Positions 4,420 to 59,491 of a stretch of 64,000 bases of DNA are shown in pieces. The position numbers and the translations under genes are program-made. Source of the stretch: an uncultured Acidimicrobiia bacterium (GTDB lineage: Bacteria > Actinomycetota > Acidimicrobiia > Spongiisociales > UBA5794); the NCBI GenBank assembly GCA_963704825.1, contig CAVPHV010000017.1:167325-231324 (forward strand), read 5' to 3'. Every line of letters begins with the position of its first letter. Position 1 is the stretch's first letter. Under the pieces are notes generated by a model. It did not search any database, was not told the origin of the DNA, and saw only the letters and a program-made list of their open reading frames with translations.

Positions 4420-5406
4420 CTATTCCAGTTCCCAGATGAGTGGGACGATTCGGTGTGTGCCATCGAGTCCCTTGAGTGACACGGCCATCGGTTCACCGAA
4501 CTCGAAGCCGTGATCGCCCGCCAGTTCTGCGGTAACGGCAGAAGCCATGATCTCGCCTCCCTCAGCTGCGGCGGCGATGCGTGCCGCTTTGTTCACCGTC
4601 AATCCGAAGTAGTCGCCCTCGGCATGGAGTACATCTCCCGAGTGCAGCCCGACTCGGACGCTGAAGTCGACGACGGGAGATGCTGTGGCGACCGCCCGCT
4701 GAATCTTCACCGCGGCAGACAGACCGCCACGGGCAGATGCGAATGTGTACATCCCGCCATCACCGAGCGTCTTGACCACGGTGCCGCCTTCCGCCTCGAC
4801 GATCCGTCGCAGCGCGTCGAAATGGGATCGCAACACTGCCGACCAGCGTTCGTCACCTATCGCCTGGGAGATCTGCGTCGAATCCGCGATGTCAGTGAAC
4901 ATCACCGTTGCGGTTCCGGCCGAAACGTCCGCTGCGTCCCCGCGATCACCCTCGCCGTCGAGCGAAGACACCAGCGCATCAAGACTCGTCGTCAGCTCAA
5001 ACCCATAGAGGTCCTCGTTCGGGACACCGATCGAGTTGTGCATCTGGATGATGCGCCACGTCCCTGCCTCGAGCAGCAGCACGAAGGTCGACCTCATCAG
5101 CACCGGGTCGCCCAGAGTGGCCATCGCAGACCTCGCGGCAGCCCAACCGACCCGTCCGTCCTCGAACGCCCGGAGATGAGAGAGCTGAAGATGCGGTGAA
5201 GAAAACCCCTCGCGGACCCCGGTCAGCTCGCGCGACTGCTCCTTGCTCACCTCCGAAAGCTCGTTCCGGCCCACCCACCATTCATCTGCATCGGTGCCGA
5301 TGCCCAAGAAGTCGGAGGATGTCGACAGGAGATTGAAGGCGGTCTCGTCGTCGACCCCTGAGAGGTAGCGACGAACCAGCGCCTCGATTTCAGGTGACGG
5401 CTTCAT
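4420..5406 (-). CDS. Class III adenylate/guanylate cyclase with N-terminal NTF2/SnoaL-like domain
   Basis: C-terminal catalytic domain VMFTDIADSTQIS...GLHSGDV...GLTVNKAARI. The N-terminal ~150 aa (EWWVGRNEL...TWRIIQMHNS) look like an NTF2-like fold. Confidence 0.8.
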   Translation of the reverse strand: MKPSPEIEALVRRYLSGVDDETAFNLLSTSSDFLGIGTDADEWWVGRNELSEVSKEQSRELTGVREGFSSPHLQLSHLRAFEDGRVGWAAARSAMATLGDPVLMRSTFVLLLEAGTWRIIQMHNSIGVPNEDLYGFELTTSLDALVSSLDGEGDRGDAADVSAGTATVMFTDIADSTQISQAIGDERWSAVLRSHFDALRRIVEAEGGTVVKTLGDGGMYTFASARGGLSAAVKIQRAVATASPVVDFSVRVGLHSGDVLHAEGDYFGLTVNKAARIAAAAEGGEIMASAVTAELAGDHGFEFGEPMAVSLKGLDGTHRIVPLIWELE

Positions 5407-5552
5407 CAGACGCGATTGTATGCGGCCCAGAGGACCGGCGATTCGGCCTCAGTCGACGGCACAGAGAGCAGCAGGCACGCCGCTTCAAAGATGTGGGGCA
5501 TCGCCCGAGTGGTTGGCCCCCGAGCCGCGCCGAATCCGCTTGAATCGCACCC

Positions 5553-6665
5553 ATGGACAAACGGGCCACCAGCCTCGAGCTCTTCTTCGACCTCGTGTTC
5601 GTGTTCGCCATCACCGAGGTGGCCGGGTTGGTGCACGACGATCTGACCTTCCAAGGTTTTGCCCGCGGCGCCATCGTGATGGCCATCTTGTGGTGGGGGT
5701 GGTCCCAGTTCACGTGGGCTGCCAACGCCATCGACCTCGAACCACGGCGGGTGCGAGCCGTCATCCTCGCCGCCATGGGGGTGGCCCTGATCATGGCGCA
5801 GTCGGTGCCCACCGCGTTCGTCGATGGGGGTCTCTGGCTCGCCGTCGGCTATGCCGCCCTGCGTGGGCTCGGCCTCTGGCAGTACTGGGTCGGCACCGAG
5901 GACGACGCGGGAACGAGGCAAGCGCTGTTGCCGTTCATCCGGTGGTCGTCGCTCGGGCCCGCAGTGATGATCCTTGGTGCCTTCCTCGACACCCCGGCGC
6001 GCAGCATCATATGGGTCATTGCGCTCGGGCTCGAGATCCTGGCCGCATCGCGCGCCGGGCGCGGGCCGTGGACGATCAACGCCGGCCACTTTGCGGAACG
6101 CCACGGCCTCATCGTGATCATCGCCCTTGGCGAAACCATCGTGGCCGTCGGTCTCGGCGCCTCCGATCGGCTGCCATCGTTCGAGGTTGCCGCGGTCTTG
6201 CTCATTGCACTCGCCGGCAGTTGCATCCTGTGGTGGGCCTACTTCGACTGGCTGGCCGACTTGTGGGAGGGCGAGCTCAAGCTCGTTTCCGCCGACCAGG
6301 CCGGTAGCTACGCCCGCGACGTGTACTCCTTCCTCCACTACCCAATGATCAGCGGCATCGTGCTCTACGCCCTCGCCGCCGAGGAGATGGTGGCGCATCC
6401 CGAGGAGGCCCTCACTTCCGGCGCCCAGTTCGCCCTTGGTCTGGCTTTGGCGCTCTATCTCGGCGGGCAGGTGCTGGCCACCTATCGCAGCAGCCGCCGC
6501 ATTCTGTGGGATCGCGTCGCAGCGGGGGCGGTGCTTCCCGTCGTCATCCTGTTGACCGGCTCGTTGGCGGCACCCTGGACGATCGGGATCGTGATGGGGC
6601 TGCTCCTGGCGGCCCTGGTCGTCGAACACGTAGGGCGTCGCGGCCGGGTCCCCGCGGCCACCTGA
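5553..6665 (+). CDS. Low-temperature-requirement A (LtrA) family membrane protein
   Basis: N-terminus MDKRATSLELFFDLVFVFAITE is the LtrA-family signature; multi-TM. The opposite-strand ORF 5406..6674 is a GC-shadow frame. Confidence 0.75.
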   Translation: MDKRATSLELFFDLVFVFAITEVAGLVHDDLTFQGFARGAIVMAILWWGWSQFTWAANAIDLEPRRVRAVILAAMGVALIMAQSVPTAFVDGGLWLAVGYAALRGLGLWQYWVGTEDDAGTRQALLPFIRWSSLGPAVMILGAFLDTPARSIIWVIALGLEILAASRAGRGPWTINAGHFAERHGLIVIIALGETIVAVGLGASDRLPSFEVAAVLLIALAGSCILWWAYFDWLADLWEGELKLVSADQAGSYARDVYSFLHYPMISGIVLYALAAEEMVAHPEEALTSGAQFALGLALALYLGGQVLATYRSSRRILWDRVAAGAVLPVVILLTGSLAAPWTIGIVMGLLLAALVVEHVGRRGRVPAAT

Positions 6666-6681
6666 GGACAACACGCCCGAG

Positions 6682-7512
6682 CTAGCCGACCGAGACCAGG
6701 GCCACCGCCGCCAGCGCCAGCGCCAATCCGACGATCCGCCGGGTGGTGAGGCGTTCGTGGAAGAACATCCGGGCCAGCAGCACCGTGGCCGCCGGGAACA
6801 TTGCAGCGATCACTGTTGCCACCGCCAGCGACTCGAGACCCGTGGCGATGATGAAGAAGCCGTTGCCGATCGCCGTCAGCGACCCTGCGGCGATTCCCGG
6901 AGCCCTGGCATCGCGGGGGAGTATGAGGCTCTTGCCGAGCCAGAGCGCGACCACTGCGATCAGGATGCCTCCGGCGATGCGCGATGGGAGCAGCGCCCAG
7001 ATGCTCGAACCGTCCGCCGTGAAGCTGAGGAAGATGAGCTGCGCCCCAAATCCGAGACCGGCGATCAGGCCGAAGCGAAGCCCGTCGCGGTCTCCGGCGA
7101 GGACTTGACGGTTCCCACCGCTGACCAGCCAGATGGCGGCAAGGCCGACGACGATTCCGGCAACCACTAGGCCGGTGGGGAAGTCCCCGGTGACGATGCT
7201 CCATACCACGGGCCAGGTAGCGGCGCCGACCGCAGCGATCGGGGACACGACGGCGACGTCGCTGCGAGTGAAACCGGTGTACAGCCCCATGACTCCCATG
7301 GCGCCGCCGACGCCGGCCAGCGAACCCCACATGATGAGTTCAGGGGTCAGGCTGCCGTCGAGGAAGGGAGCGATGGCAAGTACGGTGACGGCGCCGGCGA
7401 CATGGTTCCATGTCCCCACCGCCCACGTGTTGGCCCGACGACTCGCCAAACCTCCGAGGAAGTCACCCGTGCCCGCAAACGCCGCGGCAAGGGCGGCGAG
7501 TAGAACGCCCAT
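6682..7512 (-). CDS. EamA/DMT-family transporter
   Basis: 276-aa, 10-TM-like protein with two EamA-like halves rich in Gly/Ala/Val. Confidence 0.72.
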   Translation of the reverse strand: MGVLLAALAAAFAGTGDFLGGLASRRANTWAVGTWNHVAGAVTVLAIAPFLDGSLTPELIMWGSLAGVGGAMGVMGLYTGFTRSDVAVVSPIAAVGAATWPVVWSIVTGDFPTGLVVAGIVVGLAAIWLVSGGNRQVLAGDRDGLRFGLIAGLGFGAQLIFLSFTADGSSIWALLPSRIAGGILIAVVALWLGKSLILPRDARAPGIAAGSLTAIGNGFFIIATGLESLAVATVIAAMFPAATVLLARMFFHERLTTRRIVGLALALAAVALVSVG

Positions 7513-7575
7513 TACCGCACGCTAACGGGATCCTGAGAGTGGCGCCCGTCGGCAAGTCACCTACTCTGCTCACTC

Positions 7576-8400
7576 ATGCGAATCGGATACCAGGGCGAAG
7601 CCCACTCCTACAGCTTCCGGGCAGCCAATGAGCTGTTCCCGGCAGACGAACATGTCGGCCTACCCAGCTTCGTGGCTGCCTTCGCCGCGCTCGAGGACGG
7701 CTTCGTCGAGCGCCTGGTGCTGCCCGTGCAGAACTCCACAACGGGCAGCGTGCTGCCCGTGCTCGACCGGCTCCCCGGCACGAAGGACCACGGACCCATA
7801 TCGATCATTGCCGAACACCTCGTCGAGGTTCGACATGCGCTGCTCGGCGTTTCCGGAGCCACCGTCGACGGGCTGCGGGTGGTCAAGTCCCATCCCGAGG
7901 CGCTCGCCCAGGCCGAAGCACGTCTCCTCGACCTGGGGGTCGAGGCGGTCCCCCGTCACGACACCGCCGGGGCGGTCCGCGAGGTGGCCGCCGAGGCCGA
8001 CCCAACCATTGCGGCGCTTGCCCCGCCGGAAGCCGGTCCACCGCACGGGCTCATCGTCCTGGCGGAGAACGTCCTCGACCAGGACCACAACACGACCCGT
8101 TTTGTGGTCCTGGCACCGGGCGAGCCGCAGGTCAATTCCGACGATGACAAGACCACCTTGGTCTTCATCACCGAGCACCGCCCCGGTGCCCTCGCCCTCG
8201 CTCTCACCGAACTCGGTTTGCGGGGTGCCAACCTCACCAGGATCGAGTCACGTCCCTCGAGCGAGGCATGGAGCTATCGGTTCTTCGTCGACCTCGAACA
8301 CGACCCCGGTCCCGAGGGGTTGCGCCACGTCATCGATCCGCCACCCGCCACCCTGGCCCACCTCCAGGTGCTGGGCAGCTACCGTGCCGACCGTCGCTGA
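7576..8400 (+). CDS. pheA: Prephenate dehydratase
   Basis: PDT domain followed by an ACT domain with the TRIESRPS motif; 274 aa. Confidence 0.88.
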   Translation: MRIGYQGEAHSYSFRAANELFPADEHVGLPSFVAAFAALEDGFVERLVLPVQNSTTGSVLPVLDRLPGTKDHGPISIIAEHLVEVRHALLGVSGATVDGLRVVKSHPEALAQAEARLLDLGVEAVPRHDTAGAVREVAAEADPTIAALAPPEAGPPHGLIVLAENVLDQDHNTTRFVVLAPGEPQVNSDDDKTTLVFITEHRPGALALALTELGLRGANLTRIESRPSSEAWSYRFFVDLEHDPGPEGLRHVIDPPPATLAHLQVLGSYRADRR

Positions 8401-8423
8401 GAGGGCTCCGGTACGCTTGCCGC

Positions 8424-9293
8424 ATGCAGGTCCGGCGCTACTCCGATGCAGGTGAGTTCCTGGAGGCTTCCCGCCCCCTCTTGCTGGCGGCCGAGGACCG
8501 GCACAACCTGATCCTGGGGATCACCGGGACCCTGATCCACCGTCCCGGCTTCTACTCCGACTACCGGCTGTGGGTTGTCGCGGATGACGACGCTCCGCAG
8601 GCGGCGGCGCTCATCACCGTTCCCTTTCGGCTCGTCCTCGCCGAGGCTGCCGACCCGGCCGCTCTGCGGGTACTGGTCGACGCCGTGAGGTCGGACGGCG
8701 TTGCCGTTCCCGGCGTCGTCGGCAACCGCCCCGTCGTCGATGACTTCGTGGTGATGTGGACCGAAGTGACCGGGGACACCGCCGAGTTGTCAATGACCCA
8801 GGGGGTGTTCGCCCTGCAGCAAGTCAATCCGGTGCCCGTCGTTGCCGGGCAACCCCGCCGCGCCGTGCTCGCCGACCGGGAACTGTTGATCGACTGGTAC
8901 ACGGCCTTTGCGACAGAGGCGCTCGGCGAAGAGGAGAACCCGATCCGAGATCGTCTGGAGCAGACGGTGGACCTTCACCTCGATGCCAGCGATGCCGACG
9001 CGGTGTGGCTGTGGGATGTCAACGGTGACCCTGTGGCCCTCTCCAGCTTCGGGCGAAGCACTCCAAACGGTGCCCGCATCGGCCCGGTCTATACCCCACC
9101 GCGCCACCGCAGCAACGGGTACGGCACCGCCTTGGTGGCCGCCCAATCACAGTGGCTACTGGATCACGGCAGGCGTTTCTGCTTCCTCTACACCGATCTG
9201 GCCAACCCAACCTCCAACGCCATCTATCGGCGCATCGGCTACGAGCAGGTCACCGAGTCGGCCGAGTACGTGTTCTCCGCCCCGGCTGAATAG
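8424..9293 (+). CDS. GNAT-family N-acetyltransferase
   Basis: C-terminal GNAT core (RIGPVYTPPRHRSNGYGTALV...YRRIGY). Start moved to ATG 8424 (MQVRRY...) because the ORF-track start at 8268 overlaps pheA. Confidence 0.72.
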   Translation: MQVRRYSDAGEFLEASRPLLLAAEDRHNLILGITGTLIHRPGFYSDYRLWVVADDDAPQAAALITVPFRLVLAEAADPAALRVLVDAVRSDGVAVPGVVGNRPVVDDFVVMWTEVTGDTAELSMTQGVFALQQVNPVPVVAGQPRRAVLADRELLIDWYTAFATEALGEEENPIRDRLEQTVDLHLDASDADAVWLWDVNGDPVALSSFGRSTPNGARIGPVYTPPRHRSNGYGTALVAAQSQWLLDHGRRFCFLYTDLANPTSNAIYRRIGYEQVTESAEYVFSAPAE

Positions 9294-9363
9294 AGCGGAC
9301 GCTCGCCACTCGGTACCCTCTAGAGCGTGTCATCTGATTTGCTGCTCGTCCTGTTGTTGATCT

Positions 9364-10599
9364 GTGCTGTTCCTGATCGCCGTCTTCCTCGCCGCGGGGG
9401 AGGCGTCGCTGCTGCGGGTGCCCAGGGTGCGGGCCGCGGTGCAGGCCGATCAAGGTGACCGCCGGGCGGCGCGGGTGGTCGACTGTCTCGATGATCTGCC
9501 TCGGGTGATGAACACGGTTCTGCTCGTTGTGCTGCTGGTCCAAATCGGATCGGCCACCATCACCGGGGTGCTCGCCGAGCGTCACTTCGGCAGCCTCGGC
9601 ATCACGCTGACCTCGATCGCACTCACTCTGGTGCTCTTTGTCTATGCCGAGGCGATCCCAAAGACGTTCGCGGTTCGCCAGCCGATGCGGGTGTCCAAGA
9701 TGGTTGCGGGACCGGTGTGGGGCATGTCCCGGGTGCTGCGTCCCTTCGTCTCTCTGCTGGTCTCATTCGCCGATCTGCAGGTGCCGGGCCGGGGCATTGC
9801 CGGTCCGATCGGTGTGTCCGAAGAAGAACTCCGTCACCTGGCGGCAGAAGCCGCATCGACCGGGGCCATCGACGAGTCCGACGTCGAACTGATGGAACGT
9901 GCCTTCGAACTAGGCGACACCCGGGTCGACGACGTCCAGGTGCCTCGGATCGACATCGTCGGCATCCCAGCGGGGAGCACCATTCGCGAAGCGCTCGACA
10001 CGGCGATTGTCTCGGGTCATCGCCGGCTTCCGGTTTACGACGGCAATCTCGATCACATCGTCGGAGTGGCGAGGCTGCGGGATCTGGCCCAAGCCGTGGC
10101 CGAAGGGTCAATGGGCGGGGTGGAGACGGTGATGCAGCCGGTTCTCATCGTTCCTGAGAGCAAGCGGGTCATCAGCCTGCTACGCGAGATGCAGAGCGCG
10201 GCGCAACACTTCGCGGTTGCGGTCGACGAACACGGCGGCACCGCCGGCATCGTCACCATCGAGGACGTGGTCGCCGAACTCGTCGGGGAGGTCTCCGATG
10301 AGGGGCAGGTCCGGGTGCCCCCGATCCACGAGACCGCAACGGGAGTGTGGAGCGTCTCCGCCGCCGCCGACGTCGAAGATCTCGAGACCGAGCTCGGCGT
10401 GACCTTCCCCAGTGGCGATTGGCGCACCGTCGGCGGGCTCGTCACCGATCTTGCCGGCACCATCCCCAAGGTCGGCGACATCGTCGCCTCGGCCGGGTAC
10501 GAGTTCCGGGTGAAGGAAGCGACCCGGCGCCGGGTGCACCTTGTGGAGGTGCGCCGCTTCGCCGGTGAGTCCGGCGACGATGAGCCGAGCCCGACTTAG
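9364..10599 (+). CDS. HlyC/CorC (CNNM) family transporter: DUF21 + CBS pair + CorC_HlyC domain
   Basis: TM DUF21 region, then a CBS pair (IDIVGIPAGSTIREALD...RRLPVY) and a C-terminal transporter-associated domain. GTG start at 9364 right after an in-frame stop. Confidence 0.8.
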   Translation: MLFLIAVFLAAGEASLLRVPRVRAAVQADQGDRRAARVVDCLDDLPRVMNTVLLVVLLVQIGSATITGVLAERHFGSLGITLTSIALTLVLFVYAEAIPKTFAVRQPMRVSKMVAGPVWGMSRVLRPFVSLLVSFADLQVPGRGIAGPIGVSEEELRHLAAEAASTGAIDESDVELMERAFELGDTRVDDVQVPRIDIVGIPAGSTIREALDTAIVSGHRRLPVYDGNLDHIVGVARLRDLAQAVAEGSMGGVETVMQPVLIVPESKRVISLLREMQSAAQHFAVAVDEHGGTAGIVTIEDVVAELVGEVSDEGQVRVPPIHETATGVWSVSAAADVEDLETELGVTFPSGDWRTVGGLVTDLAGTIPKVGDIVASAGYEFRVKEATRRRVHLVEVRRFAGESGDDEPSPT

Positions 10600-10601
10600 G
10601 C

Positions 10602-13352
10602 TTGGCCGATGCAGGAGACACGACGTTCGTGACGACCACCGCGACCTCCGAGCCCCATCCCTGGTGGGCAGACGACACCGACGCGATCGTCGCCAACCTC
10701 GAAACCAGTGCCACGGCCGGGCTCACCACCGCCCAAGTCGCCGAGCGGCTCGAGAAGTACGGTCCCAACGAACTCGACGAGGCGACCACCGTTCCGGCAT
10801 GGCGCATCTTCCTGGCGCAGTTCGCCAACACCATGATCGTGGTCCTGCTGGTCGCCGCCGGCATCATGGTGGCGATCGGCGAGCCAACCGACGCCGTTGT
10901 GATTGGCGCCATCGTCGTCCTGAACGCTGCCATCGGATTCTTCCAGGAGTACCGGGCCGAGCAGGCAATGGCCGCGCTGCGCACCATGGCTGCCCCCACC
11001 GCCAGGGTGGTGCGCAACGGTGCCGAACTGACCATCACGGCTCCGGAGCTCGTGCCCGGTGACCTGATCGTCTTCGACGCAGGTGACGTTGTCGCCGCCG
11101 ACACCCGCCTCACCGAATGTCCCAACCTGCGGGTCAATGAGTCCGCTCTCACTGGCGAGTCCGTTCCCGTGGACAAGACACCAGACGTCATCCCCGAGGG
11201 ATCCGGGGAATTGATCGGCGATCGGCGCAACATGGTCTTCAAGGGCACGGCAGTGGTCTACGGCCGGGCCCGCGGCATCGTGGTCGGTACCGGGATGGAC
11301 ACTGCGCTCGGGCAGATCGCCGGGCTGCTCCAGGCCCATCAGGCCCCGAGCACGCCGTTGCAGAAACGTCTCGCCGTGCTGGGCCGCTGGCTCGCTGCCG
11401 CGGCCGTCATCATCGCGATCATCGTGTTTGCCGTCGGCGTCGCCCGCGGCGAGGACGTCGAGGAGATGTTCCTCGTTGCGGTCAGTCTCGCCGTGGCGGC
11501 CATTCCCGAGGCACTTCCCGCGGTTGTCACCATCGGCCTGGCAATGGGGGCCCAGCGGATGATTCGCCACCATGCGCTGATTCGCAAGCTCCCGGCGGTG
11601 GAGACGCTTGGCTCGGTGACGGTGATTTGCACCGACAAGACCGGAACCCTGACAGAGGGGCAGATGCTGGTCGAGAAGGTGTGGACGCTCGACCAGGAGG
11701 GCAACGTCACCGGGTCAGGGTACGAGCCTTCGGGGGAAATTCGAGTCGACGGTGCTCCGGCCGACGTCGCACCGCGAACCCCGCTGGCGAAGCTGCTGAC
11801 GGCCGCGGTGCTCTGCAACGACGCCGTGCTGGTGGCGCCGGCGGAGGTCGGCGATGAATGGGCTCTGGTCGGTGACCCGACCGAGGGTGCGCTGCTGGCT
11901 CTGGGTGCCAAAGCAGGATTCGAGCGGGAACGGGTCAACACCGAGTACCCCCGCACGGCCGAGATCCCGTTCGACTCGGAACGCAAGCGCATGGTGACGA
12001 TCCACCGCACCGCGAACGGCAGCGCCGGCTTGGTCGCCACCAAGGGAGCCATCGAAGCCACCATCGACGCCGTCGAGCAAGTGGCTACCCAGGCAGGCGA
12101 CCTCGACCTGACTCCGCAGTTGCGGACCGCGGTGCTCGACCAAGCCGCCGAGTTTGCCGCGGAGGGCTACCGGGTGTTGGCCATCGCCGGGCGGTCCGTC
12201 GCCGACGGCGTCCTCGGTCACGTGCTCGAGTCGGAGCAAGACCTCGTGCTCTACGGTCTGGCCGCCATGGCTGATCCGCCGCGTCCCGAGTCGCACGCCG
12301 CGGTCGAGGCTTGCCGCACCGCCGGGATCACCCCGGTGATGATCACAGGTGACCACCCGGCCACGGGGAAGGCCATCGCAGCGCGGCTCGGCATTCTCGA
12401 CCGCGACGAGCAGGTGATGACGGGCACCCAACTCGCCTCGGAGTCGGTCGGCGAACTGGCGGACGAGGTGAACAGGATCGCGGTATACGCCAGGACCTCG
12501 CCGGAGCAGAAGCTCGATATCGTGCAGGCCTGGAAAAAGCGCGGCGACATCGTTGCGATGACCGGCGACGGGGTCAACGACGCCCCGGCCCTGCGCACCG
12601 CCGACATCGGGGTCGCGATGGGGGTGTCGGGGACCGAGGTGGCCAAGGAAGCCGCCGACATGGTCCTCACCGACGACAACTTCGCTTCGATCGTCACCGC
12701 GGTCGGCGAGGGCCGGCGAATCTACGACAACATCAGGCGGTTCGTCCGCTACACGCTCACCTCGAACGCCGGCGAGATCTGGGTCATGTTCCTCGGCCCG
12801 TTCGTCGGGCTGGCAATCCCGCTGCTGCCGGTGCAGATCCTGTGGATCAACTTGGTCACCGATGGGTTCCCCGGCCTCGCCCTCGGGGTCGAACCGGCGG
12901 AACCCGATGTGATGGAACGCAAGCCCCGGCCCCCCGACGAGAGCATCTTCGCCCAAGGGGTGTGGCAGCAGGTCATCTTCATCGGGCTGCTGATGGGATT
13001 CCTCACGCTCGGCCTCGGGGTGTGGGGGGAGGCGACCGGTCGTCCCTGGCAGACGATGATCTTCACCACGCTGGCACTGCTCCAGCTTGGCAACGCCCTC
13101 GCCATCCGATCTGAGCGGCAGTCGTTCTTCTCTCTCGGGCCCAACAGCAACAAGCCGTTGTTGTGGACCGTGATCCTGACGGCGGCGATCCAGATCCTCA
13201 TCATCTACTGGGCGCCACTCCAGCAGCTGCTCCATACCGAGCCCCTTTCGGCAGCCGAACTCGGCATCGTCCTGGTGGTCTCCACCGGTGTGTTCTGGGC
13301 GGTCGAGATCGAGAAGGTGGTGCGGCGCAGGATGGGAGTCCAGTCCGGCTAG
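10602..13352 (+). CDS. Cation-transporting P-type ATPase (P2-type, Ca2+/Mg2+-like)
   Basis: [14 protein letters not shown] phosphorylation motif, [14 protein letters not shown] hinge, 10 TM. The TTG start at 10602 lies 2 nt after the upstream stop. Confidence 0.9.
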
Positions 13353-13421
13353 TAGCGGGCCCGACCGATCTGTGTCACAGGGCCCCGGTAGGGTGACCAT
13401 GCACATTGAGTAGGAGTATCC

Positions 13422-14912
13422 GTGGCGGGCAAACGGCAGCCAACCAGCACCTCGAACTTCGGCGCAGGACGCCGGGAGAGCCACGATGCCACGAAGTTCT
13501 ACGAGCGGTTCGCCGCCCCCGAACTCTCCGACGACGACTCCGTGGCCGTGGCACCTCTGCTGGCGGAGATCTGTATTGAGGGAGACTCCCGCGACATGGC
13601 GGCGTTGCCCGACAACTCGGTGGCATTGGTGGTCACTTCCCCGCCCTACTTCGCCGGCAAGGAATACGAGGAGACGTTAGGCCTCGGCGGGGTGCCCGCC
13701 TCCTACGCGGAGTACCTCGGGATGCTCCACGAGGTCTTCGCCGAGTGTGTTCGGGTGCTCGAGCCCGGCGGGCGGATCGCCGTCAATGTGGCCAACCTCG
13801 GCCGCAAGCCGTACCGCAGCCTGTCGGCCGATGTCATCCGCATCCTCCAAGACGAACTGCGCCTCCTGTTGCGCGGCGAGGTGATCTGGAAGAAGGCCGA
13901 GGGCGCCGCCGGGTCCGTCGCCTGGGGTTCATATCGCAGCGCGGCCAACCCGGTCCTTCGCGACATCACCGAGCGGGTGATCATTGCCAGCAAGGGTCGC
14001 TTCGATCGCGCCCGGTCGCCAAAGCAGCGCGAGGCGGAGGGGTTGCCTTTCGACACCAAGACGTCTGCCGACGAGTTCATGGCCGCCACCCTCGACGTGT
14101 GGGACATCCCGTCGGAGAGTGCCCGGCGGGTCAACCACCCCGCTCCCTTCCCGGTCGAACTGCCGCAGCGACTGGTCAAGCTCTACACCTACGAGAACGA
14201 TATGGTGCTCGATCCGTTCATGGGGTCGGGCAGTGCCCTGGTGGCCGCCCTCAAGGAGGGGCGGCGTGCCGTCGGCTACGACCTCGACCCCGGCTACGTC
14301 GAGACCGCCCGCAAGCGCGTCGCCGAGTTCCTCCACGAACGGGCGGAGCGCATCCAACGACACACCACGGCACCGCCGAGCCCGCTGTCGGTTCAGCCCA
14401 AGCTGCCGGATCCCGATGAGAGCTTCCAGGCCAGGGCAACTCGGGAGGGCAAGGCTGCTCAGGCGATTGCTCGCAAGGTCCTGGAGGAGGCCGAGTTCAC
14501 GATCGTCAAGAAGGACTACAAGGTCAGCCGGGCCGGCGTTCGCTTCAACCTCCTCGTGAGCGACAAAGAGGGCGGCCAGTGGTACGTGGATGTCTCCGGC
14601 GCCTTCACCACCACCCGGGGCGGCCTGCTGCGCACCGACACGGTATGGAAGGCGCTCGGCCGGGCACTGGTGTTGCGCGAGAACCCTGAGGTTGGCGATC
14701 ACCCCAGGTTGTTGTTGCTCACTTCCGACCTGCCCAAGCCGGGGAGCGAAGGTGACAAGGCGCTGCGGGCGGCAGGACCGGGTTCGTTCTGGGATGCCAT
14801 CGAGATGTTGTCCGATGACGGTCGCCGGCGCCTCCGGGAGTACGCCACGGGAACTCACGAACACCCGCTGCCCGGGTTCTGGAACGACGCCGATCTCGAG
14901 GGACTGGCGTGA
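13422..14912 (+). CDS. DNA methyltransferase (N4-C/N6-A beta class, TSPPY motif IV before DPFMGSGS motif I) with ~190-aa unassigned C-terminal domain
   Basis: ALVVTSPPYF (motif IV) around residue 72 and VLDPFMGSGSA (motif I) around residue 265; PF01555-like order. SPPY suggests N4-cytosine specificity. C-terminal residues ~310-496 (FTIVKKDYKVSRAGVRFNLLVSDKEGGQWYVDVSG...) are not recognisable to me. Confidence 0.85.
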   Translation: MAGKRQPTSTSNFGAGRRESHDATKFYERFAAPELSDDDSVAVAPLLAEICIEGDSRDMAALPDNSVALVVTSPPYFAGKEYEETLGLGGVPASYAEYLGMLHEVFAECVRVLEPGGRIAVNVANLGRKPYRSLSADVIRILQDELRLLLRGEVIWKKAEGAAGSVAWGSYRSAANPVLRDITERVIIASKGRFDRARSPKQREAEGLPFDTKTSADEFMAATLDVWDIPSESARRVNHPAPFPVELPQRLVKLYTYENDMVLDPFMGSGSALVAALKEGRRAVGYDLDPGYVETARKRVAEFLHERAERIQRHTTAPPSPLSVQPKLPDPDESFQARATREGKAAQAIARKVLEEAEFTIVKKDYKVSRAGVRFNLLVSDKEGGQWYVDVSGAFTTTRGGLLRTDTVWKALGRALVLRENPEVGDHPRLLLLTSDLPKPGSEGDKALRAAGPGSFWDAIEMLSDDGRRRLREYATGTHEHPLPGFWNDADLEGLA

Positions 14913-15232
14913 GAGGAGTGACGGTGGCCTGTGCCGTGGTGCGCGACGAACCCCCGGTGCTCATGCTCGCCGAGGATCTCGACGTGTTGCAGCGAGCGCT
15001 CGCCCTCCGTCTGGTTGCCCGCAACGAACCGCCACGGCTCACCGACGTCCAGCGTGAGGGGATGCAGGCGGCACTGCTCGATGAGCGATGGGGCGATGCC
15101 GTCGCGGCGTGGATCGACCACACCGGAATCGAGGTCGACGTGTACACCGAATCGATCCTCACCGCGGCCGACGTTCCCGCAGACCTGGTCGGGGCCGAAC
15201 TGCAGTTTGCGCCGCTGTTTCGCGGTGGCTGA
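14909..15232 (+). CDS. Small acidic hypothetical protein, translationally coupled to the methyltransferase
   Basis: Its GTG start overlaps the MTase TGA stop (GTGA). 107 aa with a plausible Ala/Leu/Asp/Glu-rich composition; the alternative frames are Arg/Ser/Pro junk. Confidence 0.5.
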   Translation: MRGVTVACAVVRDEPPVLMLAEDLDVLQRALALRLVARNEPPRLTDVQREGMQAALLDERWGDAVAAWIDHTGIEVDVYTESILTAADVPADLVGAELQFAPLFRGG

Positions 15233-15238
15233 GCAACC

Positions 15239-16300
15239 GTGCCGGCACTACGCACCGAGATCACCGAAATCGTCACCGGGTTGGGGATGCTCGGCTTCCC
15301 CAACCTCGATCGAGCACTGGAGGTGCGTCCCACCGCAGTGCGCAATGTTGCGGTTGAGCACTACGACCGGCTGGCGGCTGCCCGCCACGACGGCTCGCAT
15401 CGTCGCGCGTTCGAGGTCGCTTGGCGCAACGGTGTCGAGTTCGCCCGCTCGCCGGAGGGGCTGCGGGGCCGGCCGCCATGGTGGCTGGAGTGGAAAGGCG
15501 GCCACCGTCCTCCCGGCTACGAGCAGGTGCCCGCCGACCTTCGGGTCGATCACGTCTACCTGGTCTCGTGCAAATACGGCTCCAACATCCTGACCAACTC
15601 ATCACCCGCCAATCTGTTCGATCGGTTGCTGGGCGACCGCCGCGACTCGGGGTCGGATTGGTTTCTCGAGGTCGCGCCCGATGGATATCAGGACCTCTAC
15701 CTGGCGTGCCGTGGGTATCTGGGTGCCCCCGGGCTGCCCGACCGGGTGTCCGACCTCGAGCAGCACCATCGTGAGGTTTTGAAGCGGGAATTGCCGCGAC
15801 GTTTTGGCGGCGACCTGCAAACGGTCTACCGGGAATTTGCCGCGGAGGTTGCCCGTTCTTCCGTCGAGCGTTGGAGAGCAGCCATGACCGATCGTCGCGA
15901 CCAAGAAACCCAATTGTGGCGGCTGCTGCGGCTCCAGGCCGCGCCCTACTTCGTGCTCGGCGAATCGGCCGAGGGCCGGCCACTCCAGTATCGGGTTGGC
16001 ACCCCGTGGGATTTCCGCAACCGCTATCGACTACGCAAGCTCGATGCCTGGTCTGATCCGGATCGTAGCCAGCCGGTCGTGTTGTGGCGGGCCGAGGTCC
16101 ACGATCAGCTGACGGGTACCACGACCGAGGTGGCAGGCCACGTTGAGGTGCGGTGGAGCCACGGACGGTTTGCCCAAGCCCCGGAGGCGAAGGTCTATTT
16201 GGGAACGGCACACCATGCGGTTCCCGGTTACGTGCCGCTCAGCCGACCCGAACGCGACCCGGAGCGCCTTGCTCTCGGCTGGGGTGGTGGGGCCTCATGA
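15239..16300 (+). CDS. Hypothetical protein, candidate PD-(D/E)xK-like nuclease (VPAD-x9-SCK)
   Basis: 353 aa. Motif P98-A-D100 ...HVYLV-S110-C-K112 has the spacing of a PD-x(10)-(D/E/S)xK core on a hydrophobic strand. Starts 6 nt after the previous gene and its stop overlaps the next start (ATGA). Confidence 0.5.
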   Translation: MPALRTEITEIVTGLGMLGFPNLDRALEVRPTAVRNVAVEHYDRLAAARHDGSHRRAFEVAWRNGVEFARSPEGLRGRPPWWLEWKGGHRPPGYEQVPADLRVDHVYLVSCKYGSNILTNSSPANLFDRLLGDRRDSGSDWFLEVAPDGYQDLYLACRGYLGAPGLPDRVSDLEQHHREVLKRELPRRFGGDLQTVYREFAAEVARSSVERWRAAMTDRRDQETQLWRLLRLQAAPYFVLGESAEGRPLQYRVGTPWDFRNRYRLRKLDAWSDPDRSQPVVLWRAEVHDQLTGTTTEVAGHVEVRWSHGRFAQAPEAKVYLGTAHHAVPGYVPLSRPERDPERLALGWGGGAS

Positions 16301-16980
16301 GTGCTCCTGTTCCGGCATGGACCACTACGTCGCCGCCGCTCGAAGCTGCAGTCCTCGCGGCGTTTCCCTACCTGGTCGGTGTCCTGCTGGTGGCACTCCC
16401 ACTGCTCCTCGTCCCTGATTCTTGGGATGTCTTTCCCACGTTCGTGATCCAACTCGGCGGCTTGGTGCTCCTCGGCCTCGTCGTCACCACCCGGCTGCTC
16501 GGGTTCACCACCGCAGGCTGGTACCGATGGGTCGGTTGGTCGGAGCGAGCCAGGCGCCTCGCCGGCGATGTTTCGCTGGTTGTGCTGGTGACCGGATTGG
16601 TTGGACTTGTCACGCTGGCGACGTCGGCAGCGCTGCGGCTCGAACCGTCGCTTCAGTTCCTCCAGTTACTGTCGGCGCTCGATATTGCGTGGGCGGGAGC
16701 CGCCATCATGATCGGGGCCTACCGGCTGTGGGGGCGCCGCGCCGCCCTGGTGGGAGGCAGCCTGCTTGGAGTCTTCTGTGTCTGGTCCATCTGGAACTAC
16801 CTGCACATCGTCGGCTTCACCGGTGACGATGGGTGGCTGCTCGAGGGCGGCCAGATCATGCGGCTCGTGCTTCCCTTCGACATGATGGCGGCCGTCGTCG
16901 CCATCTCCCTGCTCGTCGTCGGCTCGGGCCGAGACGACTCGAACCCTCAGCGGATGGCGCAGGCGAGCGACCAGTCGTAG
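16297..16980 (+). CDS. Hypothetical integral membrane protein (~6 TM)
   Basis: The ATG at 16297 overlaps the upstream stop. Several hydrophobic helices (LVGVLLVALPLLLV, LGGLVLLGLVVTTRLLG, VSLVVLVTGLVGLVTLA...). The ORF-track N-terminal extension from 16153 is rejected. Confidence 0.55.
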   Translation: MSAPVPAWTTTSPPLEAAVLAAFPYLVGVLLVALPLLLVPDSWDVFPTFVIQLGGLVLLGLVVTTRLLGFTTAGWYRWVGWSERARRLAGDVSLVVLVTGLVGLVTLATSAALRLEPSLQFLQLLSALDIAWAGAAIMIGAYRLWGRRAALVGGSLLGVFCVWSIWNYLHIVGFTGDDGWLLEGGQIMRLVLPFDMMAAVVAISLLVVGSGRDDSNPQRMAQASDQS

Positions 16981-17735
16981 GGCTGAAACGCCACTCGGGG
17001 TGACGTGTCCGCCGTCCAGCGGACAACCTTGGGATCGAGCCACGGAGACAGCAACGCCGCGACGTGCTTGCTGCCGGCCGGCCGCCAGGTGGGCATCTTG
17101 TGCGGCCGGGCAAAGTCGCCTCCGTACCAGCGGAAGATGCGAGACAGCCTGAGCACGCCGCCGGATTGATCCATCACGGCCCCACCGCCGGCCAGGAATG
17201 CACACATCTGATCGTCGAGCTGTGCGTCGAGCTGATCACCGCCATACGGTTCGTGACGCAGGGTCGGGCACGAGGCCGAACCGCACACCAGGGCGCCGTG
17301 AATGCGGGGATCGCCGAAGCGCCTGATCTTGCCGTGTTCGATGGCATCGAGGGAGAGGTTCTCGCCGGCAACGGTGACCCAGGACCGCTGAAACCCGCCG
17401 GGGAGCCTCAGGACCGAGGTCGCCTGCCGCACAAGGGATTCGGCAGCAAGATCGAGTGCTCCCGCGTTGTAGAGGTTCAGCCAGTAGGCCAGAGCGACCG
17501 AGGGCGAGAGATCGTCGGGGTCGATCCTCGCCATTCGATCCCGATAGGCATGGAGCGCAGCTTGGTGGTCGACGAGCGCGGCCACGCCGGTGCTCTGCAA
17601 CGCAGCGAGCACGGGGGCCAGTTCAGTGTGATCGACGGTCGAGGTGCCCGTCGGTTGGGGGCGACGGTCCCGCGAGGCGCGCCAGATCGACCAGGCGACG
17701 GTGAGTGGATTCGGTCCCTTGGGGGTATCGGCCAT
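16947..17735 (-). CDS. DUF547 domain protein
   Basis: LAYWLNLYNAGAL...IEHGKIRRFGDPRIHGALVCGSASCPTLRHEPY is the DUF547 signature. True start is MADTPKGP at 17735; the ORF-track N-terminal 154 aa are an Arg-rich artefact overlapping nhaA. 12 nt downstream of nhaA. Confidence 0.7.
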   Translation of the reverse strand: MADTPKGPNPLTVAWSIWRASRDRRPQPTGTSTVDHTELAPVLAALQSTGVAALVDHQAALHAYRDRMARIDPDDLSPSVALAYWLNLYNAGALDLAAESLVRQATSVLRLPGGFQRSWVTVAGENLSLDAIEHGKIRRFGDPRIHGALVCGSASCPTLRHEPYGGDQLDAQLDDQMCAFLAGGGAVMDQSGGVLRLSRIFRWYGGDFARPHKMPTWRPAGSKHVAALLSPWLDPKVVRWTADTSPRVAFQPYDWSLACAIR

Positions 17736-17749
17736 GTCGACGCGGAGGG

Positions 17750-19162
17750 TCAGCCGCCGGCCGGTGTCTCGACGATGCCGAGTCTCTTGCGACCGGCCTC
17801 GAGCTCCTCGTCGGGAGTCTTGCTCCGCCGCAACAACAGGTAGCCGACCACACCGGCGATCGTCGAGCCGATGAAGATGCCGATCTTGGCCCGGTCGACG
17901 ATCTGGGCATCGGTGAAGGCAAGCTCCGTGATGAACAACGAGACGGTGAAGCCGATCCCGGCCAGGGTGGCGAGGCCGAAGACCTCCCCCCATCCCGAGC
18001 GCGGCGGCAGCCTGCCGATTCCGAACTTGACCGCGAGGAACGTCGCCAGAGTGATGCCGACAGACTTGCCGACGAGCAAGCCGGCGGCGACACCGAGGGC
18101 GACGTTGCTGGCCGCGGTGTCCAGCAGATCGATGTCCACGAAGCGGACCCCGGCGTTGGCGAGGGCGAAGATCGGGACGATCACAAACGATGACCACGGG
18201 TGGAGGGCCAGCTCGAGCCGGTCGAGCGGCGAAACCGACTCCCTGGCGATGGTCGAGAGATCCAGGGCGTCGTGATCGACCCGCTCCCGTGCCCGCGGCG
18301 ATGCGGCATCCATGTCATAGCGGCTGAGGAGCCACTTCGACTTCTGGTAGTACTCCTTGTCCGAGTACATCGCATGCACCGGCGTCAAGAACCCAAGGGC
18401 GACGCCGGCGAGGGTGGCATGGACGCCGGATTCGAACACGAAGAACCAGGTGACGATGCCGGCGACGACGTAGAAACCCATTGAACGAATGCCAATGCGA
18501 GAAGCAAAGGCGATGGCCACGAGCGCGCCGAGGCTGGCCAGCAGCCATCCGAACGCAAGGTCGGTGGTGTAGAAGATGGCGATGACGGCAATGGCTCCGA
18601 TGTCGTCGGCAATGGCCAGCGCCAGTAGGAAGAGTTTGGCGCCGACCGAGATACGGTTGCCGAGCAGTGAGAGCACACCAACGGAGAAGGCGATGTCGGT
18701 GGCCATCGGGATTCCCCAACCTTGCAGGGCTTCGCCTCCGGTGCCGGCGACGAAGGCGACGTAGATGAGCGCCGGGAGCATCATCCCGCCGAGGGCGGCG
18801 ATGGCAGGCAGCGCCGCCCGCTTGCGGTCCCGCAATTCGCCGACGACGAGTTCGCGCTTGATCTCTAGGCCAACAACGAAGAAGAAGATGACCATCAGGG
18901 CGTCATTGACGATGTGCGTCAACGACTCGTCGAAGTGGAATGAGCCGATGGAGAAGGTGACGTGGGTATGCCAGAACTCCTGGTATGACGCACCCGATCC
19001 GGCATTGGCCCAGATGAGGGCCGCGACGGTTGCGGCCAACAGCACGATGCCGCCCGCCGCCTCCACGTGGGTGAACTGGATGAGGGGTCGCACAAAGCGG
19101 CTGGGAATAGTACGGTCGGAGTGGAGCCACGTTCGGTGGATTCGTTCGCGTTCGTCTGCCAT
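17750..19162 (-). CDS. nhaA: Na+/H+ antiporter NhaA
   Basis: 470-aa multi-TM protein that I recognise as NhaA family by its overall composition and helix pattern; C-terminal charged tail. Confidence 0.86.
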   Translation of the reverse strand: MADERERIHRTWLHSDRTIPSRFVRPLIQFTHVEAAGGIVLLAATVAALIWANAGSGASYQEFWHTHVTFSIGSFHFDESLTHIVNDALMVIFFFVVGLEIKRELVVGELRDRKRAALPAIAALGGMMLPALIYVAFVAGTGGEALQGWGIPMATDIAFSVGVLSLLGNRISVGAKLFLLALAIADDIGAIAVIAIFYTTDLAFGWLLASLGALVAIAFASRIGIRSMGFYVVAGIVTWFFVFESGVHATLAGVALGFLTPVHAMYSDKEYYQKSKWLLSRYDMDAASPRARERVDHDALDLSTIARESVSPLDRLELALHPWSSFVIVPIFALANAGVRFVDIDLLDTAASNVALGVAAGLLVGKSVGITLATFLAVKFGIGRLPPRSGWGEVFGLATLAGIGFTVSLFITELAFTDAQIVDRAKIGIFIGSTIAGVVGYLLLRRSKTPDEELEAGRKRLGIVETPAGG

Positions 19163-57783: not shown

Positions 57784-58577
57784 GCGAGCTGATGTTCCAG
57801 GGCGCCGATTTGAGCTTCGAGATCGCCGAGTTCGGCCTCGATCTCCGCTGCCGATTGATCGGTGGGTGGGCGAGTCAGTTGACCCTGCACGGCTCCGTAG
57901 CGATTTGAAGCGTCGCGGAATTCTGCGGCGAGCTGAGGACGGCCATCGAGCTGGACCTTGGTCGACAAGTCGAGGATGGGATCCGACAGGGCATCGGCTC
58001 GGGTCTTGAGTTGGGACCAATGGCTGCCCAGAGCGCGTTCTCTCCGGCTTGCCGCGGCGCGTTGTTCAAAATGGCGACCGCCGAGTCCGACGATCAGCAA
58101 CACGGCGGCAATCCCGGCGAGGATGAGCCCCCAATTGGTTGAGGAGGTTTCGGTCAGGGCTGCGTCAACAAAGGCATCGACACCGTCGGCGATCGATGGG
58201 CCGGAGAGCTGGTCATCGGCTGCGGCCAAGGCCGAGTCCATCTCGCCCTGCGAGAGGGCATCGCTCGATGCTCCGTACGCAACCGGGGTGAAGACGAGGA
58301 CCGTACCGGCGACGAGGTCGTTGACCTGGGCGGCGAAGGCGACGGCGTCGACGGCCGGGTCGGCCAGCACGACGACGCGGAGTCCGAGCCCATTGGCTGC
58401 GGCTCGGTCGATGGAGGCGATGACCCGGTCGACGTCGAGGGCGCCGGCTCCGGGCTCGACGTAGAGCCCGTCCGAGAGCCCGGTGGCGGCCTCTTCCGGC
58501 GTCGCGGCGAGGGCCGTCGGTGCGAGCAACGATGCGAGCGCAACAGCCAGCAGCAGCGCTGCAGTGATGTGTCGCAT
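57780..58577 (-). CDS. Hypothetical secreted/membrane protein (signal peptide, ~130-aa extracytoplasmic domain, one TM, coiled-coil tail)
   Basis: Signal peptide MRHITAALLLAVALASLLAPTALA, TM WGLILAGIAAVLLIVGLGG, C-terminal AEIEAELGDLEAQIGALEHQL. Possibly TPM-like; not assignable. Confidence 0.5.
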   Translation of the reverse strand: MRHITAALLLAVALASLLAPTALAATPEEAATGLSDGLYVEPGAGALDVDRVIASIDRAAANGLGLRVVVLADPAVDAVAFAAQVNDLVAGTVLVFTPVAYGASSDALSQGEMDSALAAADDQLSGPSIADGVDAFVDAALTETSSTNWGLILAGIAAVLLIVGLGGRHFEQRAAASRRERALGSHWSQLKTRADALSDPILDLSTKVQLDGRPQLAAEFRDASNRYGAVQGQLTRPPTDQSAAEIEAELGDLEAQIGALEHQLA

Positions 58578-58656
58578 GGTTCAAGCCGTCCGTGAGCCGA
58601 TTCAAGATGCTACAACGGTCGTGGCAGCGGCCACGAGCCGCCGGCTGGGACGGGGG

Positions 58657-59427
58657 ATGTTGGTGCAGCAACGCAGAGTGACCGGGCCGGATGGCACACG
58701 GTGGATCGTGGGGCGGCGCTGGTTGGTGTCTCGGCCGCGTTATTTGGGGTTTCGGTTTGGGGTGGATCGCAGGGTTCCACAGTACGAACCCCCGCATTCC
58801 GGCGATGTGCCCGCACCGCGGGTGGTGCGGCGCCCGGCGCCGACTCGTCCGCCGACGCCCCCCATCGTTCACTACCGCGACAAGGGTCCCAAGCCCCGGG
58901 GCGGTTGGTGGTTCGGCGGTTCGGGCAGGTCCGGTGGCAGAGGGTTCGGCCGGGTTGGACCCGGTGGTGGCCGGAGCAGCGGTGGCGGTGGCCGATCCGG
59001 CGCATCGGGCGGGGGCGGCCGGGGCAAGTCGTCGGGCGGGGGCAAGCGCGGTGGCGGCGGCGGTGGCGGCGCCATCGGTGGCGCCGCGGCAGCCTTGCTG
59101 AAGATCCTCAAGTACGTGCTCATTGTGATCCTGGTCATCGCGGTAGCTCTGTTCGTGATCTTCGTGCTCGTGCCCACCGTCTTGTTCTTGCTCCACTACG
59201 CGGTCTTCTCCCTCGTCGTTGGAGCCACCATCGCGCTGCGGATGCTCACCGGGAGACCGTGGATCATCGAACTGGAGGAAGCCGATGGCTATCGGGTGAA
59301 GGCGTGGCGGATCAAAGGCTGGCAGGAGAGCAAGCGAGTCATCGACGAGGTGGCCGAAGCCGTTCGTCGTGGCGATCGTGCCGAGCCCGCCGGTGCCGAG
59401 TCGGTTGAGATCGTCAACGCACCGTGA
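58657..59427 (+). CDS. Hypothetical membrane protein with Gly/Arg/Ser-rich low-complexity region
   Basis: Start MLVQQRRVTGPDGTRWIVGRRW. A 60-aa G/R/S tract (GGRGFGRVGPGGGRSSGGGGRSG...) precedes two TM helices and a 60-aa C-terminal domain. Confidence 0.5.
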   Translation: MLVQQRRVTGPDGTRWIVGRRWLVSRPRYLGFRFGVDRRVPQYEPPHSGDVPAPRVVRRPAPTRPPTPPIVHYRDKGPKPRGGWWFGGSGRSGGRGFGRVGPGGGRSSGGGGRSGASGGGGRGKSSGGGKRGGGGGGGAIGGAAAALLKILKYVLIVILVIAVALFVIFVLVPTVLFLLHYAVFSLVVGATIALRMLTGRPWIIELEEADGYRVKAWRIKGWQESKRVIDEVAEAVRRGDRAEPAGAESVEIVNAP

Positions 59428-59491
59428 GCGCGTTCGTAACCACGACGCCGGCGCGCCAGAATCAAGGCCAATCACGATCGCGAACGTACGA

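Follow-up and report, generated by a model that had tools for sequence, protein, structure and literature searches.

The stretch of DNA analyzed in this study (the window: 64,000 nucleotides (nt) of contig CAVPHV010000017.1) originates from an uncultured bacterium of the class Acidimicrobiia and carries four tightly packed open reading frames (ORFs), encoding a DNA methyltransferase (MTase), a small acidic protein (ORF2), a putative endonuclease (ORF3) and a membrane protein (ORF4). Based on the comparison of about 80 related loci, which were fetched and searched with the window proteins by tblastn, we propose that the first three genes constitute an operon of the Acidimicrobiia which is chromosomal and inherited vertically, and that this operon derives by domestication from a Type II restriction-modification (R-M) system, a reading to which we give an even chance. 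The features of the region are collected in Table 1.

TABLE 1. Features of the operon and its immediate surroundings (positions in the window).
Feature	Position	Strand	Details
Predicted PafBC/RecA-NDp-like promoter	13373-13394	+	TGTCAC (-26), 10 nt, TAGGGT (-10); 28 nt before the GTG start
Shine-Dalgarno-like AGGAG	13410-13414	+	7 nt 5' of the MTase GTG; read from the sequence
MTase	13422-14912	+	496 amino acids (aa); GTG start
Beta-class amino-DNA-methyltransferase domain	13422-14360	+	residues ~1-312
C-terminal PD-(D/E)xK restriction-endonuclease-fold domain	14394-14909	+	residues 325-496 of the MTase
ORF2	14909-15232	+	107 aa
ORF3	15239-16300	+	353 aa
ORF4	16297-16980	+	227 aa counted from ATG; alternative GTG start at 16153
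P-type ATPase, flank of the MTase	10602-13352		DKTGT motif in the translation
Convergent DUF547 ORF, other flank	16947-18197	-	NhaA gene also convergent

Direct reading of the sequence agrees with the original prediction, a note made from the sequence alone, on the four ORFs and their junctions: the MTase and ORF2 genes overlap in GTGA, ORF2 and ORF3 are separated by 6 nt (15233-15238), and ORF3 and ORF4 overlap in ATGA. Since each of them has many homologues, all four ORFs are real genes. The close spacing at the first two junctions is seen again in about 35 other loci.

The Methyltransferase and Its Small Acidic Partner

The N-terminal domain of the MTase matches the Pfam family N6_N4_Mtase (PF01555) over residues 67-297 (E = 2.4e-37; 129.5 bits versus a cut-off of 26.7) and covers the whole PADLOC profile MTase_II PDLC03350 (E = 3.4e-83). 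The closest solved structure is TTHA0409 (2zie; E = 1.3e-35); M.RsrI and M.PvuII are further relatives in the PDB. Motif IV (SPPY, residues 73-76) precedes motif I (FxGxG, here DPFMGSGS, near residues 264-271) and the protein thus follows the beta-class order. The SPPY sequence is kept in every homologue examined. It corresponds to motif IV of an N4-cytosine MTase (N4CMT), while the adenine MTase CcrM has DPPY (PMC10406627), and on these sequence grounds it favors N4-cytosine as the target. Including its C-terminal extension, the protein shows 63-76% identity among the best 120 matches and remains at least 50% identical across the class (range 50-76%).

The original prediction had noticed an extra domain behind the catalytic core, and this part indeed adopts the core fold of the PD-(D/E)xK restriction endonucleases (REases), with its alpha-beta-beta-beta-alpha-beta order. 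The motif is non-canonical, consisting of N52, D57, D66-V-S68, R80 and K86 (numbering of the fragment). With the expected catalytic positions set by fold topology and a YraN-like sequence pattern, N52 and S68 occupy the canonical D and K positions in most members. In the C-domains of the type found in loci L001 and L002 (the two checked) position 52 is a D, and copies of this type give a weak match to Pfam UPF0102/YraN. D57, D66, R80 and K86 are invariant, K86 being located in the helix that follows. We regard the domain as a relic that binds DNA or else as a variant nuclease. If it were the nuclease of the system, in the manner of a fused Type IIC-style R-M enzyme, ORF2 would be its acidic, immunity-like inhibitor or regulator and ORF3 would have no role in restriction. 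The clear REase fold and the four invariant residues are in line with such an arrangement, yet the N and S at the canonical positions of most members argue against it, as does locus L059, where a C-domain, diverged and with its motif degenerate, is kept in the absence of ORF2. We give little credence to this alternative.

For the acidic ORF2 (isoelectric point (pI) 4.34), 219 homologues with a length of about 105 aa were found; they all come from Acidimicrobiia and include marine Tara Oceans sequences. As the original prediction had stated for the three partner proteins, none of ORF2, ORF3 and ORF4 belongs to a family in Pfam, NCBIfam or PHROG; the PADLOC profiles give no match for ORF2 and ORF4 either, and sequence and profile searches of the PDB with ORF2 returned no match. 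ORF2 is always found directly 3' of the MTase, also in the marine loci without ORF3, and is translationally coupled to the long MTase form, of which it is an obligate partner. Relative to the window copy, the identities of ORF2 follow those of the MTase (Pearson 0.84-0.90) more closely than those of ORF3 (0.45); as the data points depend on each other, this is weak evidence. We also considered ORF2 as a homologue of XisI or of a C-protein; no match was found, leaving both assignments unsupported by sequence.

ORF3, a Putative Endonuclease

ORF3 is a basic protein (pI 8.5) with a single PADLOC match, a weak but consistent one to REase_II (E = 7.6e-4). Across the loci, the conserved protein measures 340-350 aa and its gene is usually the third. 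Neither sequence and profile searches of the PDB nor Foldseek against the PDB gave a significant match; the best structural match is the fold of R.HinP1I. The assignment as an REase is weak. Among sequences clustered at 90% identity, ORF3 has 3637 homologues. The best 120 of them are all at least 57% identical to ORF3 and are hypothetical proteins of Acidimicrobiia, and an exhaustive HMMER search among 50%-identity representatives collected only 518 relatives without a link to any wider family.

The invariant residues of the family are E10, R78, E84, P98-x-D100, D104, S110-C-K112, N120, D140, H301-x-E303-x-R305, E316-A-K318 and H325. They are common to ORF3 copies next to an MTase and to solo copies, which fits an enzyme under strong purifying selection. 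The PxD-X9-SxK arrangement is, we presume, compatible with the active sites of Cfr10I-type REases. In locus L084 (7491-8556), a homologue of only 33-35% identity is split over two reading frames and may be a pseudogene or the product of an assembly indel error.

A Predicted DNA-Damage-Type Promoter

Upstream of the MTase we find a predicted promoter, TGTCACAGGGCCCCGGTAGGGT (13373-13394), that resembles those recognized by PafBC. In PafBC promoters a -35 element is missing and the -26 element contains a conserved GTC (PMC8635444; PMC6789036); their 22-nt consensus is tGTCgg(N10)tA(N3)T (PMC8635444). The window motif fits this 22-nt architecture, for which the consensus is mycobacterial, and is the sole match to TGTCR-N11-TANNNT in the 64 kb of the window. 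In 37 of 41 distinct loci, the marine clade included, the more relaxed pattern NGTC-N12-TANNNT is found in the 300 nt that precede the MTase; the background is 6.3e-5 per nt, i.e., about 0.02 expected matches per region. The GTC, the spacing and the -10 element are the conserved parts of the motif and the 'gg' is not; L001 and L013 carry a TGACAC variant. A scan for sigma-70 promoters and terminators yielded nothing informative, and no RNA family was found by Rfam in 12500-17800.

No pafBC homologue is located within the window. In the longer marine loci, the MTase-ORF2 genes are preceded at a distance of about 1.6 kb by a pafB/pafC-like pair (HTH_PafC, WYL and WCX domains), with an ExoIII-like gene in between and with HU and RNase HII genes nearby. 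The pair occupies 1033-2870 in L066-L068 and is the first gene in L072 and L073.

Other matches to GTC-N12-TANNNT in the window, at 5415, 29693, 45525 and 59483, are within chance expectation, and at the two that were examined (29693 and 59483) there is no recognizable repair gene. The last of them (59483-59503, minus strand; GTCGG-N10-TACGTT), equally within this expectation, is nearer to the mycobacterial 'GTCgg' and stands 8 nt before a GTG-started ORF of 420 aa (58213-59475), which has no Pfam match and is perhaps spurious.

Conservation, Linkage and Variants of the Operon

Linkage was counted over the 60 loci with a full-length ORF3. In 34 of them, the MTase with both its domains lies side by side with ORF2 and ORF3, at ORF3 identities down to 43-54%, and in lineages as diverged as this ORF2 and ORF3 are often only 2-15 nt apart. 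In the other 26, ORF3 stands alone among housekeeping or metabolic genes, e.g., NAD synthase and glutamine synthetase in L003, or a luciferase-like monooxygenase and SufB in L043. The marine lineages have the MTase-ORF2 pair in a fixed neighborhood of ExoIII-like, TauE, HU, PIG-L and CofC genes. In the marine metagenome-assembled genome (MAG) SP281, the pair is on contig PBKA01000021 and ORF3 on PBKA01000010, such that all three genes are kept though unlinked. Locus L039 has an MTase without C-domain and without ORF2, directly followed by ORF3, and this is the minimal, classical layout of a modification and a restriction gene. The MAGs of L039 and L032 are labeled Burkholderiales and Chthoniobacterales, respectively; the gene content of both loci is Acidimicrobiia-like, and these labels are probably binning or labeling errors.

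The frequent solo occurrence of ORF3 raises the question of whether it belongs to the system at all. The operon might encode a solitary, regulatory (epigenetic) MTase, with ORF3 as a housekeeping enzyme unrelated to cleavage that is merely a frequent neighbor. Besides the 26 copies among metabolic genes, the lack of a significant Foldseek match for ORF3 and the classification of the published Acidimicrobiia MTases as orphans (PMC8919816) are compatible with this. On the other hand, ORF3 closely adjoins ORF2 across these diverged lineages and directly follows the short MTase of L039, and its REase_II match, though weak, is consistent. We find this explanation improbable.

In L001, L002, L008-L010 and L012, ORF3 and the flanks are 64-71% identical to the window, whereas the MTase reaches about 53-61%, its C-domain 42-46% and ORF2 34-40%. 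The MTase-ORF2 pair seems to be faster-evolving, or to have been replaced, in this sub-lineage, possibly reflecting a change of specificity.

A further gene recurs next to the operon. In nine loci of one clade (L030-L038), ORF3 is immediately followed by a convergent gene for a PolB-like DEDD 3'-5' exonuclease of about 175-190 aa (e.g., 6992-7510 on the minus strand of L033). In L084, an exonuclease domain of the same family (5001-5600) is joined in frame to the MTase N-terminus, giving an ORF of 722 aa that is preceded by the same PafBC-type motif. The 64-kb window contains no homologue of this exonuclease.

These associations lead to an alternative in which the genes serve methyl-directed repair or processing similar to Dam-MutH: the MTase would mark parental DNA, ORF3 would be a monomeric nickase that reads methylation, and the DEDD exonucleases and the PafBC regulon would complete an Acidimicrobiia-specific pathway. 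In its favor, the genes are retained throughout the class, and some lineages have them unlinked in the way of dam and mutH; the promoter is of the DNA-damage type; and pafBC-like, ExoIII-like, HU and RNase HII genes are present in the marine neighborhood. HinP1I, the best fold match of ORF3, acts as a monomer, and the exonuclease, beside ORF3 in nine loci and part of the MTase in L084, would provide the resecting activity. Against this, nicking and mismatch recognition are conjectural, no MutS/MutL-like or NucS partner is seen in the loci, the solo copies of ORF3 are not behind a damage-type promoter, and the link with the exonuclease is confined to one clade. To our knowledge, Actinomycetota generally lack MutS and MutL. 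Overall, we consider this alternative tentative and unlikely. In its boldest form it would describe a damage-inducible, PafBC-controlled Dam-MutH analogue specific to Acidimicrobiia, where the parental DNA would be marked by the SPPY MTase together with the nuclease-fold domain and ORF2, ORF3 would be a new type of methylation-reading nickase, and DEDD exonucleases would resect the nicked strand; this more elaborate version we regard as distinctly doubtful.

Genomic Context and the Membrane Protein

In the window, the operon is flanked by a P-type ATPase gene on one side and by the convergent DUF547 and NhaA genes on the other, family names that we have taken from the syntenic loci L001 and L002. 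These chromosomal flanks are common to close relatives, and in the nearest locus, L005 from an Acidimicrobiia MAG, ORF3 is 96% identical and the gene order from the ATPase to PolX is the same as in the window. Provided that both stops are as read, ORF4 on the plus strand and the DUF547 ORF on the minus strand share their last 34 nt (16947-16980).

ORF4 has five to six hydrophobic segments according to its hydropathy, corresponding to about six transmembrane helices. Its homologues occur only in L001, L002 and L005-L013 and always adjoin DUF547. The loci that bear it all hold this flank, plus NhaA where the contig reaches far enough, and most loci with the trio of MTase, ORF2 and ORF3 are without it. 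In L011, 3.2 kb separate ORF3 from ORF4, which is still beside DUF547; the insert (7283-10165) holds a two-component system, made up of a HisKA_3 histidine kinase and a LuxR-type response regulator, and an ORF of 272 aa that has no Pfam match. Because ORF4 is restricted to close relatives and stays with DUF547 in L011, it is a local neighbor outside the conserved unit. We have rejected it as a component of the system on the grounds of its distribution and its separation from ORF3 in L011; it would be an unrelated membrane protein that shares a transcript with the operon only in this sub-lineage. The tight four-gene layout in the window thus overstates the unit, and ORF4 should not enter models of the system.

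A horizontally acquired island was likewise considered and rejected: the GC content of the cassette matches that of its flanks, there is no transfer RNA (tRNA) gene in the window and no meaningful flanking repeat at the locus. No relatives of ORF3 were found in plasmid and phage collections, which were searched by tblastn, or in IMG/VR, which was scanned. PADLOC signals are limited to the Type II MTase profiles for the MTase and the weak REase_II match for ORF3, with no further system. Vertical synteny, the lack of signs of mobility and the lack of a PADLOC system do not correspond to a mobile defense island or a known defense system.

The original prediction had seen in the four genes an undescribed, modification-dependent or abortive-infection-style defense module or an atypical R-M system, and had proposed to look for its recurrence in defense islands. 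Its mobile variant, a four-gene anti-phage cassette including the membrane protein, can refer to the tight coupling in the window and to the unannotated partner proteins. WYL-type regulators and DNA-damage induction also control known defense systems (PMC10693628). Furthermore, an AbiEi_4/MTES_1575-like gene is located about 1.1 kb upstream of the MTase in L001 (3975-4952), the sole defense-type neighbor in any locus. Nevertheless, ORF4 is missing from most trio loci, inheritance is vertical with conserved housekeeping flanks, ORF3 was not found in the plasmid, phage and viral collections, and neither island signatures nor a PADLOC system beyond MTase_II and the weak REase_II match are present. 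The distribution of the genes has already largely refuted such a cassette, and we attribute hardly any probability to it. The reading as a sporadic, mobile defense island is unsupported: the genes are widely conserved by vertical inheritance in Acidimicrobiia (50-75% identity), are embedded among housekeeping genes and can become unlinked from each other. What stands of the proposed unit are its first three genes, which have an atypical R-M flavor, while the fourth drops out. The original prediction had named conservation of the partners with different neighbors as a sign against it, and this turned out to be true for ORF3 and ORF4 and not for the MTase-ORF2 pair.

Candidate Methylation Marks

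A link with known epigenetic marks is suggested by the work of Hiraoka et al. (2022; PMC8919816), who observed methylation of CGCG and BAAAA in every marine Acidimicrobiia genome that they examined and none in the class Actinobacteria. Two orphan MTases, M.AspCt9H300mP26I and M.AspCt9H90mP5I, were verified as BAAAA-specific enzymes producing N6-methyladenine (m6A), and both Acidimicrobiia MAGs examined in detail had one N4-methylcytosine (m4C) motif without an assigned MTase (PMC8919816), which we infer to be CGCG. For the CGCG mark, the widely conserved SPPY MTase is thus a natural candidate, though it could instead be one of the BAAAA enzymes.

Counts of CGCG and of A-tracts in the regions upstream of the MTase show no pattern. 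For CTAG, the ratio of observed to expected counts is 0.32 in the window and 0.43 in the trio loci; depletion of this site is common and generic. In the marine loci the ratio is 0.90 for CTAG and CGCG is not among the six lowest sites, so neither of them is notably depleted there.

Interpretation

Inheritance across the Acidimicrobiia is vertical and the promoter is of the DNA-damage type, and the operon thus looks like a domesticated, R-M-like system and not like a mobile defense island. In the mechanism that we propose, the MTase would write one of the marks of marine Acidimicrobiia; CGCG is the best candidate because SPPY favors N4-cytosine, with BAAAA as the alternative. The nuclease-fold C-domain and ORF2 would together serve in DNA binding or in regulation, possibly as a nuclease that an immunity-like inhibitor keeps in check, and ORF3 would be an endonuclease that acts on DNA without the mark. 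DNA damage would raise transcription of the operon via PafBC, whereby methylation would be restored on new or repaired DNA, or self-cleavage would feed back onto the MTase.

Several points weigh against this interpretation. R-M systems do not usually keep an REase of fixed specificity throughout a class, and the class-wide spread is itself judged from the loci compared here. Aside from CTAG, no 4- or 6-bp palindrome is strongly avoided, CGCG having an observed/expected ratio of 0.68-0.73. If the MTase were a BAAAA-specific m6A orphan, it would poorly fit a Type II R-M system, which is palindromic. In the C-domain, the canonical D...(D/E)xK triad is missing, with no K at +2, where S68 is found. 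Finally, the promoter is a prediction from sequence architecture, the 'gg' of the consensus is 'ac' in the window, and solo copies of ORF3 have no PafBC-like motif.

The operon would provide a gene-level candidate for a mark seen in all marine Acidimicrobiia genomes examined. ORF2 and ORF3 are two unannotated families that are conserved in an abundant, mostly uncultured class and tied to DNA methylation. The combination of a PafBC-type promoter, a nuclease-fold fusion and a recurrent link with DEDD exonucleases suggests that an R-M system has been taken over for chromosome maintenance.

Comparison with Known Systems

Among the closest known systems are the classical Type II R-M systems that combine a beta-class N4-cytosine MTase of the M.PvuII or M.BamHI type with a PD-(D/E)xK REase. 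Shared features are the adjacent, co-oriented MTase and putative nuclease genes, the SPPY motif, the end-to-end fit of the MTase to PADLOC MTase_II and the minimal layout of L039; among REases, the HinP1I/MspI-like monomeric enzymes have the nearest fold to ORF3, a weak assignment. In contrast to these systems, the operon is vertical and class-wide instead of patchy and its genes can be separated, and it has an extra nuclease-fold domain on the MTase, an obligate acidic partner and a damage-type promoter.

As clade-wide, solitary and vertically inherited DNA MTases, CcrM of Alphaproteobacteria and Dam of Gammaproteobacteria, the latter with MutH and SeqA, offer another parallel. The dam and mutH genes are retained together yet unlinked, as are those of the MTase and ORF3 in marine Acidimicrobiia. 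CcrM is also a beta-class enzyme with an extra C-terminal DNA-binding domain (PMC6787082). Unlike CcrM and Dam, the MTase of the window has SPPY and not DPPY, a C-domain with PD-(D/E)xK fold and a small acidic partner. The nuclease-fold domain and ORF2 recall XisH/XisI and other nuclease-immunity pairs, in which a PD-(D/E)xK protein has a neighbor of about 110 aa, since the partner of about 105 aa is located directly downstream; different from XisH/XisI, ORF2 has no sequence match to XisI and the nuclease-fold domain is fused to the MTase.

The orphan MTases of Hiraoka et al. (PMC8919816) come from the same class, and their orphan status resembles that of the marine MTase-ORF2 pairs, with a clade-wide mark facing a clade-wide gene. 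The SPPY of the MTase argues for m4C, though its family may be either one of the BAAAA enzymes or the MTase of the motif left unassigned. As to the promoter, the mycobacterial PafBC (RecA-NDp) promoters share with the window the GTC in the -26 element, the 10-nt spacing, the TA(N3)T of the -10 element and the absence of a -35 element. They differ in the two positions after GTC, which are GG in mycobacteria and mostly AC in the loci described here.

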